This document shows, in pieces, positions 32,167-32,361 of a DNA stretch of 64,000 nt (its first letter is position 1; each line of letters opens with the position of its first letter). The DNA comes from Dictyostelium discoideum (lineage: Eukaryota). The DNA lies in assembly GCA_000004695.1 (NCBI GenBank), contig CM000152.2, positions 1,344,001-1,408,000 on the forward strand. The letters are read 5' to 3'. The position numbers and the translations under genes were made by a program. The notes under the pieces are model-generated. The model saw only the letters and a program-made list of their open reading frames with translations, was not told the origin of the DNA and ran no database searches.

Positions 32167-32361
32167 ATGTCATTAAAAGGATCATTGAAATTACCAGCAG
32201 CACCAAAAGATAAAGTTAGAAATATTACTAAATTTCCAGTATTAGTAGAGGGCGAGGTTGTTACCAATTATGCACAAAAAGATGTAAGACCAATCTTTCA
32301 AAAATTATCATATCCAGTATTCATAGATTTAAGTGAAGGTATTTACTTATTAGAAAAGTGA
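32167..32361 (+). CDS. Coding-looking 64-aa ORF: either an independent small protein or a mis-phased 5' exon of the LRR gene downstream
   Basis: ATG at 32167, translating MSLKGSLKLPAAPKDKVRNITKFPVLVEGEVVTNYAQKDVRPIFQKLSYPVFIDLSEGIYLLEK. Codon composition looks genuine, with GC well above the flanks. GTAAGA (32284) and GTATTT (32339) donors are present. Neither is phase-compatible with the only sensible acceptors of the downstream exon (32459-32460 and 32504-32505). Confidence 0.4.
   Translation: MSLKGSLKLPAAPKDKVRNITKFPVLVEGEVVTNYAQKDVRPIFQKLSYPVFIDLSEGIYLLEK

Follow-up and report, generated by a model that had tools for sequence, protein, structure and literature searches.

Does an open reading frame that looks coding, and that lies where the first exon of a long gene would be expected, belong to that gene when the two appear impossible to join in phase? 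The question is raised by an ATG-to-TGA ORF of 64 codons at 32167..32361, seen in the ORF listing and the sequence of the window, the whole 64,000-nucleotide stretch of Dictyostelium discoideum DNA analyzed here. A 5.6-kb open frame encoding LRRs, a kinase-like domain and armadillo repeats begins 145 nt 3' of the ORF. The window is extremely A+T-rich, as dictyostelid genomes are, and the raised G+C content first ascribed to the ORF is borne out, at about 29% (28.8% in 32167..32357 and 28.6% in 32167..32397) versus 7.5% across the 270 nt upstream. The start codon of the ORF stands in the context AAAATG, and no in-frame ATG was found upstream of it. The original prediction had held that no in-phase splice connects the ORF to the LRR gene, although its position is that of a first exon, and had considered a micro-protein gene of its own, a conserved upstream ORF (uORF) with a regulatory role, an unrecognised micro-exon or a single-base indel.

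The evidence makes it very likely that the ORF is exon 1 of the LRR/kinase-like/armadillo gene, frame-shifted by one surplus base within 32354..32359. Exon 1 would extend from the ATG at 32167 to 32397, followed by an intron at 32398..32505 and by exon 2 from 32506. One base too many in the sequence AAAAGT (32354..32359) would put the last 13 codons of exon 1, which encode DDFMKSCTNVIKE, in the +1 frame and would create the TGA at 32359, so that exon 1 mimics a self-contained ORF out of phase with the acceptor. Removal of one base would restore read-through and give a 1949-aa protein colinear with its orthologues. The features of the locus are as follows (a slash within a sequence marks a splice junction).

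32167..32355, plus strand: first part of exon 1, in the ORF frame, MSLKGS...IYLLE, codons 1-63.
32354..32359, plus strand: site of the surplus base, AAAAGT, where alignments to orthologues change frame.
32358..32359, plus strand: probably cryptic GT in phase 2, AA/GTGATG, which straddles the last sense codon and the stop (AA/G TGA).
32360..32397, plus strand: end of exon 1, 38 nt, in the +1 frame, which is the exon-2 frame; encodes DDFMKSCTNVIK plus the GA of a split Glu codon.
32398..32505, plus strand: intron, 108 nt, 14.8% G+C, GTATGT...CAG, phase 2 in the exon-2 frame.
32467..32472, plus strand: probable branch site ACTAAC, 34 nt upstream of the 3' splice site.
32506..38125, plus strand: exon 2, whose first base, A, completes the Glu codon; LNLSSNSL..., with a stop at its end.

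The 38 nt at 32360..32397, just 3' of the ORF stop, have a G+C content of 26% and code in the +1 frame for the 13 residues that make up the first half of the first LRR. Directly after them, at 32398, stands a consensus donor, GA/GTATGT, which is in phase 2 in the +1 frame and pairs with the acceptor at 32505; relative to the ORF frame, the same donor is in phase 0 and lies 3' of the stop. As assembled, exon 1 (32167..32397) measures 231 nt, which is not 2 modulo 3, and its premature TGA occurs 39 nt ahead of the donor. One base thus separates the register of the ORF from that of the true splice pair, so that the phase puzzle reduces to a single surplus base, and the TGA at 32359..32361 is a by-product of the frame shift.

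The splice phases had in part been read correctly at the outset. Both AGs considered as acceptors, at 32459/32460 and 32504/32505, do require a phase-2 donor, and each keeps the frame of the LRR exon open. The statement that places each GT of the ORF at codon position 1 is mistaken, however: seven of the 11 GTs are in phase 0, but those at 32333 and 32339 are in phase 1 and those at 32169 and 32358 in phase 2. Taken literally, the claim that the ORF cannot be spliced in phase therefore fails, because the GT at 32358 joins the 32505 acceptor in frame, but the puzzle that it expressed is real, the donor at 32398 being out of register. Likewise, the codon at 32579, taken for an internal Met of the LRR exon, is TTG (Leu), and the first in-frame ATG within exon 2 is at 32675. 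The phase-1 donors at 32333 and 32339 can be joined in frame to AGs inside the LRR exon (exon starts at 32538 and 32550), with the loss of conserved LRR residues, and were rejected.

A protein search with the spliced N-terminus as the query returned three distant relatives. In two of them, P0003 and P0002, a homologue of the ORF peptide is fused to LRRs, and about 13 extra residues (DDDFLANCPNVVKE and SLDFLLGCPDVIKE) are found directly before LDLSSN. In tblastn, residues 17-90 of P0003 match the ORF frame (32164..32355; E 2e-5), and residues 90-177 match the +1/exon-2 frame from 32354 on, across the intron. The 13-residue segment encoded past the stop has a summed BLOSUM62 score of 86 against the two homologues; the runner-up among the 127,918 stretches of 13 residues in the six frames of the 64-kb window scores 50, and none of 100,000 shuffles matches the score of 86. 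A profile made from P0003 and P0002 and searched against 1.84 billion representatives retrieved full-length orthologues from D. purpureum (XP_003283622.1), T. lacteum (KYQ91144.1) and P. violaceum (KAF2075579.1), together with proteins from Balamuthia, Protostelium, Mastigamoeba and Pelomyxa.

We aligned 13 amoebozoan orthologues with the window protein from which one base had been removed. All 13 carry (L/I)(E/D/A)-x-DDFxxxCxNVxKE-L(N/D)LSxN without a gap, and the 13-residue segment is missing in none. One residue only separates LLE from DDF in every orthologue (N, S or D in 12 and L in one). The ORF peptide forms the in-frame N-terminus of a protein of 765-1972 aa, or of a shorter partial sequence, in 13 of 13, and a stop codon at the position of the ORF end was found in none of them. 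The corrected window protein aligns with the 13 orthologues free of gaps from SYP into the LRRs, and it has the same N-terminal region, KLPxxPK ... SYPxxLDxS ... DDFxxxCxNVxKE, followed by SDS22-like LRRs, as well as the central protein-kinase fold and the C-terminal armadillo repeats. End to end, it is 57% identical to the D. purpureum protein (DICPUDRAFT_147302; XP_003283622.1/EGC39871.1, 1772 aa), which shares with it the conserved N-terminal region, SDS22-like LRRs, linker, kinase-like domain and armadillo repeats. The LRR/pseudokinase/armadillo protein is conserved across Amoebozoa. The peptide is indeed present in other dictyostelids, a check proposed with the original prediction, and its fusion in frame to the LRRs of the orthologues confirms the placement of the ORF as the first exon of the LRR gene.

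The gene structure is conserved as well. In annotated models that we reconstructed, the genes of D. purpureum, T. lacteum and P. violaceum each have a single intron, which interrupts the same codon as that of the window and in the same phase, and the orthologues of all three species share with the window the MSLK... start and the phase-2 intron before LNLSSN. The junctions of the dictyostelid orthologues read AAA GA/GTAAGT or GTAAAT ... AG/A TTx xAT. A matching phase-2 intron, AAA GA/gtaagt...acag/A TTA GAT, is found in a Logan genomic contig of a further amoebozoan (L001), and it is spliced out in a transcript contig (L002). Within the window, the phase-2 intron in a Glu codon before L(N/D)LSxN and the divergent Mob1 neighbour described below are both present. 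What sets the window apart is that exon 1 of the dictyostelid orthologues is uninterrupted (230 nt in D. purpureum, 227 in T. lacteum and 233 in P. violaceum, all 2 modulo 3), whereas exon 1 of the window, at 231 nt, has a frame break and a premature TGA. The lack of the uninterrupted frame argues for an error or a recent lesion, and not against orthology.

As a separate observation, the transcript contig L002 (at about 630..640) differs from the genomic contig L001 (at about 6210..6225) by a one-base deletion (aacaatcc versus aacatcc), which shifts P0003, the protein called from L002, out of frame past ...SGNRIN. This difference exemplifies how common single-base indels are in assembled contigs.

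At the DNA level, exon 1 is 80% identical to the D. purpureum locus, with the start codons aligned, and the introns are unalignable. The donors align (GA/GTATGT in the window versus GA/GTAAGT in D. purpureum), as do the acceptors (CAG/ATTAAATTTATC versus TAG/ATTAAATTTATC). The coding part of this alignment contains a single gap, at G32358 (GAA AAGT GAT versus GAG AA-T GAT). Over the whole of exon 1, 39 codons are identical, 26 differ by synonymous and 11 by non-synonymous changes; codons 1-63 account for 31 identical, 24 synonymous and 8 non-synonymous, and the codons past the shift for 7 identical and 2 synonymous, with 3 conservative changes. Constraint on exon 1 therefore persists at both sides of the shift. 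Since synonymous sites have diverged and the introns can no longer be aligned, 32360..32397 cannot have been non-coding for long; and since the ORF part carries no second lesion, the break in the frame, if it is real at all, must be very recent.

Together, these comparisons establish the exon/intron anatomy and show where the one-base discrepancy lies. The single-base indel put forward in the original prediction is the reading that they bear out, with the change of frame confined to 32354..32359 and the lone gap at 32358; a cDNA joining the ORF to the LRR exon by a canonical in-frame splice, and hence implying a base-call error, had been named as what would refute the original claim that the two cannot be joined in phase, and this is essentially what the comparative data show. 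As assembled, the site reads GAAAAGTGAT; with one base fewer, it reads GAAAATGAT or GAAAGTGAT. Deletion of G32358 yields GAA AAT GAT (E-N-D), the state of D. purpureum, and deletion of one A of the A4 run yields GAA AGT GAT (E-S-D), the state of T. lacteum. Any one base taken out of 32354..32359 brings exon 1 to 230 nt and the protein to 1949 aa; the corrected site then encodes N, the D. purpureum residue, S, which T. lacteum, P. violaceum and P0070 carry, or K.

The intron has the features expected of this organism. Its length of 108 nt compares with a median of 104 nt for D. discoideum introns (PMC4683709), and its ACTAAC and the T runs 3' of it (32475..32486 and 32488..32496) match the commonest branch motif class, 'wctaay', and the polyT peak at 15-40 nt from the acceptor (PMC2483917). 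It seems likely that the ACTAAC at 32467..32472 is the branch site used here and, since it lies 3' of the alternative AG at 32459/60, the acceptor at 32505 is favoured. The acceptor at 32460 was rejected; it is upstream of ACTAAC and would add NSKLTLFFFYFFLIIR, a translated poly-T tract with no counterpart in the homologues. The intron also contains a T run of 30 nt (32427..32456) followed by CCAG, which yields this second in-frame AG, 45 nt before the conserved acceptor; splicing at 32459/60 instead would add 15 residues (SKLTLFFFYFFLIIR) and alter the junction codon, and none of the homologues supports it. Exon 2 encodes, in order, LRRs, a long low-complexity linker, the kinase-like domain and armadillo repeats, with Pfam matches to LRR_4, LRR_8, LRR_9, Pkinase (E 6e-31), PK_Tyr_Ser-Thr (E 2e-34), Arm and ARM_ARMC5.

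What, then, is the surplus base? We infer that it is probably a base-call or assembly error, for example a run of three A residues read as four, or a spurious G. The D. discoideum reference holds 119 curator-made introns of less than 5 bp in 102 genes, and these tiny introns have been argued to patch errors in the genome sequence (Singh et al., 2017; PMC5282741). For two such genes with patches of 1-3 bp, clcD (DDB_G0278639) and DDB_G0279477, RNA-seq proved the genome to be in error (PMC5282741). The likeness to the present locus is that of a conserved gene whose frame is broken by a single-base discrepancy; the difference is that the error was demonstrated there by RNA-seq, whereas here it is comparative data only that point to it. 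Two observations speak against an error. First, exon 2 contains no frame break over 5.6 kb despite many homopolymer and repeat runs, which indicates a low local error rate. Second, the in-phase GT at 32358 would rescue the frame with no correction at all. Look-ups gave no further guidance: none of six gene models (of 1936, 1882, 1816, 1949 with Asn and 1951 aa, and the 64-aa ORF) has an exact match in the protein collection, an exact-match search of the contig index with the 64-aa ORF returned no match, and neither did a metagenome scan for the site with a variable gap of 3-5 nt.

Alternatively, the extra base may be real, a recent frameshift allele of the sequenced strain, although we consider this unlikely. 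The base is present in the sequence as given, and exon 2 is otherwise free of errors across its 5.6 kb. Three outcomes can be envisaged for such an allele. Splicing at the strong donor at 32398 would leave a first ORF that stops after 64 codons, and the allele would be null or hypomorphic. Initiation or re-initiation at the ATG at 32369, which lies 8 nt past the stop and is in the exon-2 frame, would give a protein of 1882 aa that lacks the N-terminal 67 residues. Finally, splicing from the donor at 32358, which the insertion itself would have made if the surplus base is the G, would give 1936 aa, 13 residues fewer than the full-length protein; this GT, a phase-2 site, keeps the frame when joined to 32505, and the resulting LLEK/LNLSSNSL fits an LxxLxLxxNxL repeat. 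Against a real allele, both halves of exon 1 have been under long-term purifying selection and no second lesion is seen, so that any mutation would have to be very recent; GTGATG is a poor donor, with the consensus GTATGT 40 nt downstream; and single-base coding errors are documented for about 100 genes of the reference (PMC5282741).

It is highly improbable that the sequence is correct as it stands and that the normal splice joins the donor at 32358 (AA/GTGATG) to the acceptor at 32505, the GT having been overlooked when the ORF was first described. The appeal of such a splice is plain, in that it is in frame, removes an intron of typical size (148 nt) and leaves an uninterrupted frame of 1936 aa, ...IYLLEK/LNLSSNSLIEV..., that is, a clean protein containing IYLLEKLNLSSNSLIEVTSLGHLNK. 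However, use of this donor would drop 13 conserved residues, which are found in 13 of 13 orthologues, and 38 nt then assigned to the intron would still match orthologous coding sequence codon by codon, up to the conserved donor, whereas the remainder of the intron is unalignable between species. The conserved 38 nt imply that 32360..32397 is translated now or was until very recently. Moreover, the donor at 32358, with G at position +3 and T at +5, does not resemble the donors of the orthologues or the other probable donors of the window, all of which begin with GTA, although those of the window come from a heuristic intron finder that gave few clean introns, too few for real donor statistics. 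The overlooked GT was therefore dropped as a full answer, given that the sequence past the stop codes in the +1 frame for 13 residues conserved in the homologues. Should G32358 be the surplus base, the GT would owe its existence to that very base; in any event, it is probably cryptic.

That a genuine extra base is coupled to a full or near-full protein, whether through +1 frameshifting at AAG-UGA-U or through the self-created donor at 32358, is extremely improbable. For the first of these routes, programmed +1 ribosomal frameshifting at AAG-UGA-U (32356..32362), U32359 would be skipped and GAU GAU UUU read, to give ...LLEK-DDFMK.... The antizyme +1 programmed frameshift site is UCC-UGA-U, and the likeness lies in the UGA-U, where a ribosomal shift of +1, the very shift required here, would restore the frame of the window; the product would match the orthologues in the single residue that separates LLE from DDF. 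Yet any one-base insertion before GAT GAT produces the AAG-UGA-U configuration automatically. The site further differs from the antizyme type in that it has no known stimulator and is conserved in no orthologue, the frame being unchanged at this position, and it has no Rfam match. With the very low prior for a new, lineage-specific shift site in such a gene, programmed frameshifting is scarcely credible.

The independent micro-protein gene, the conserved regulatory uORF and the unrecognised micro-exon have next to nothing in their favour beyond the look of a closed 64-codon ORF of coding composition, since the peptide forms the N-terminus of the long protein in each of the 13 orthologues and continues in frame into the LRRs, with no stop and no separate ORF of its own, the peptide alone matches no Pfam family, and the sequence 'missing' before exon 2 is contiguous with the ORF (32360..32397), so that no extra exon is needed. 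Rfam and tRNA scans around the ORF region likewise found nothing.

The ORF is thus the first exon, of an ordinary kind, of a conserved gene, and the value of the analysis lies in a corrected model and a flagged base. Its importance is mainly for annotation quality, and catalogues should list the ORF neither as a micro-protein or uORF nor as an orphan exon. A correct model would join 32167 (ATG)...32397 to 32506...38125, with one base discounted in 32354..32359, and encode 1949 aa; a model that uses the GT at 32358 would silently lose, from the first LRR, 13 residues that are conserved. The genome sequence at this locus is a candidate for correction. Should the base be real, the sequenced strain has a lesion in this gene, which would be relevant to studies of the gene in that strain.

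The neighbourhood of the gene supports its orthology. A Mob1/phocein gene (Pfam E 1.4e-63) lies at 29685..30125 on the minus strand, divergent from the LRR-kinase gene, and a divergent upstream Mob1 neighbour is likewise found at the T. lacteum and P. violaceum loci. Orthology is thus backed by synteny, and the head-to-head arrangement of the two genes is old. The window gene may be DDB_G0278909, next to mobA; when DDB_G0278909 was looked for in the supplements of Singh et al. (2017; PMC5282741), no support was found. The Mob1 gene probably has a further exon past an intron of 81-87 nt that ends near 30238. The intergenic region between the two genes is very A+T-rich and measures about 1.7-1.9 kb; within it, against a G+C content of 7-13%, there is a small G+C bump (0.23) at 31300..31500, which contains no notable ORF and matched neither a tRNA nor an Rfam family.

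The catalytic loop of the kinase-like domain reads HRALK, with HRA in place of HRD, in the window and in D. purpureum, T. lacteum and P. violaceum; the Balamuthia orthologue keeps HLDLK. The HRA motif is consistent with the dictyostelid proteins of this orthologue group being pseudokinases. The kinase-like domain lies at about residues 920-1090 of exon 2, and a run of about 26 Asn residues interrupts the kinase fold of the window protein.
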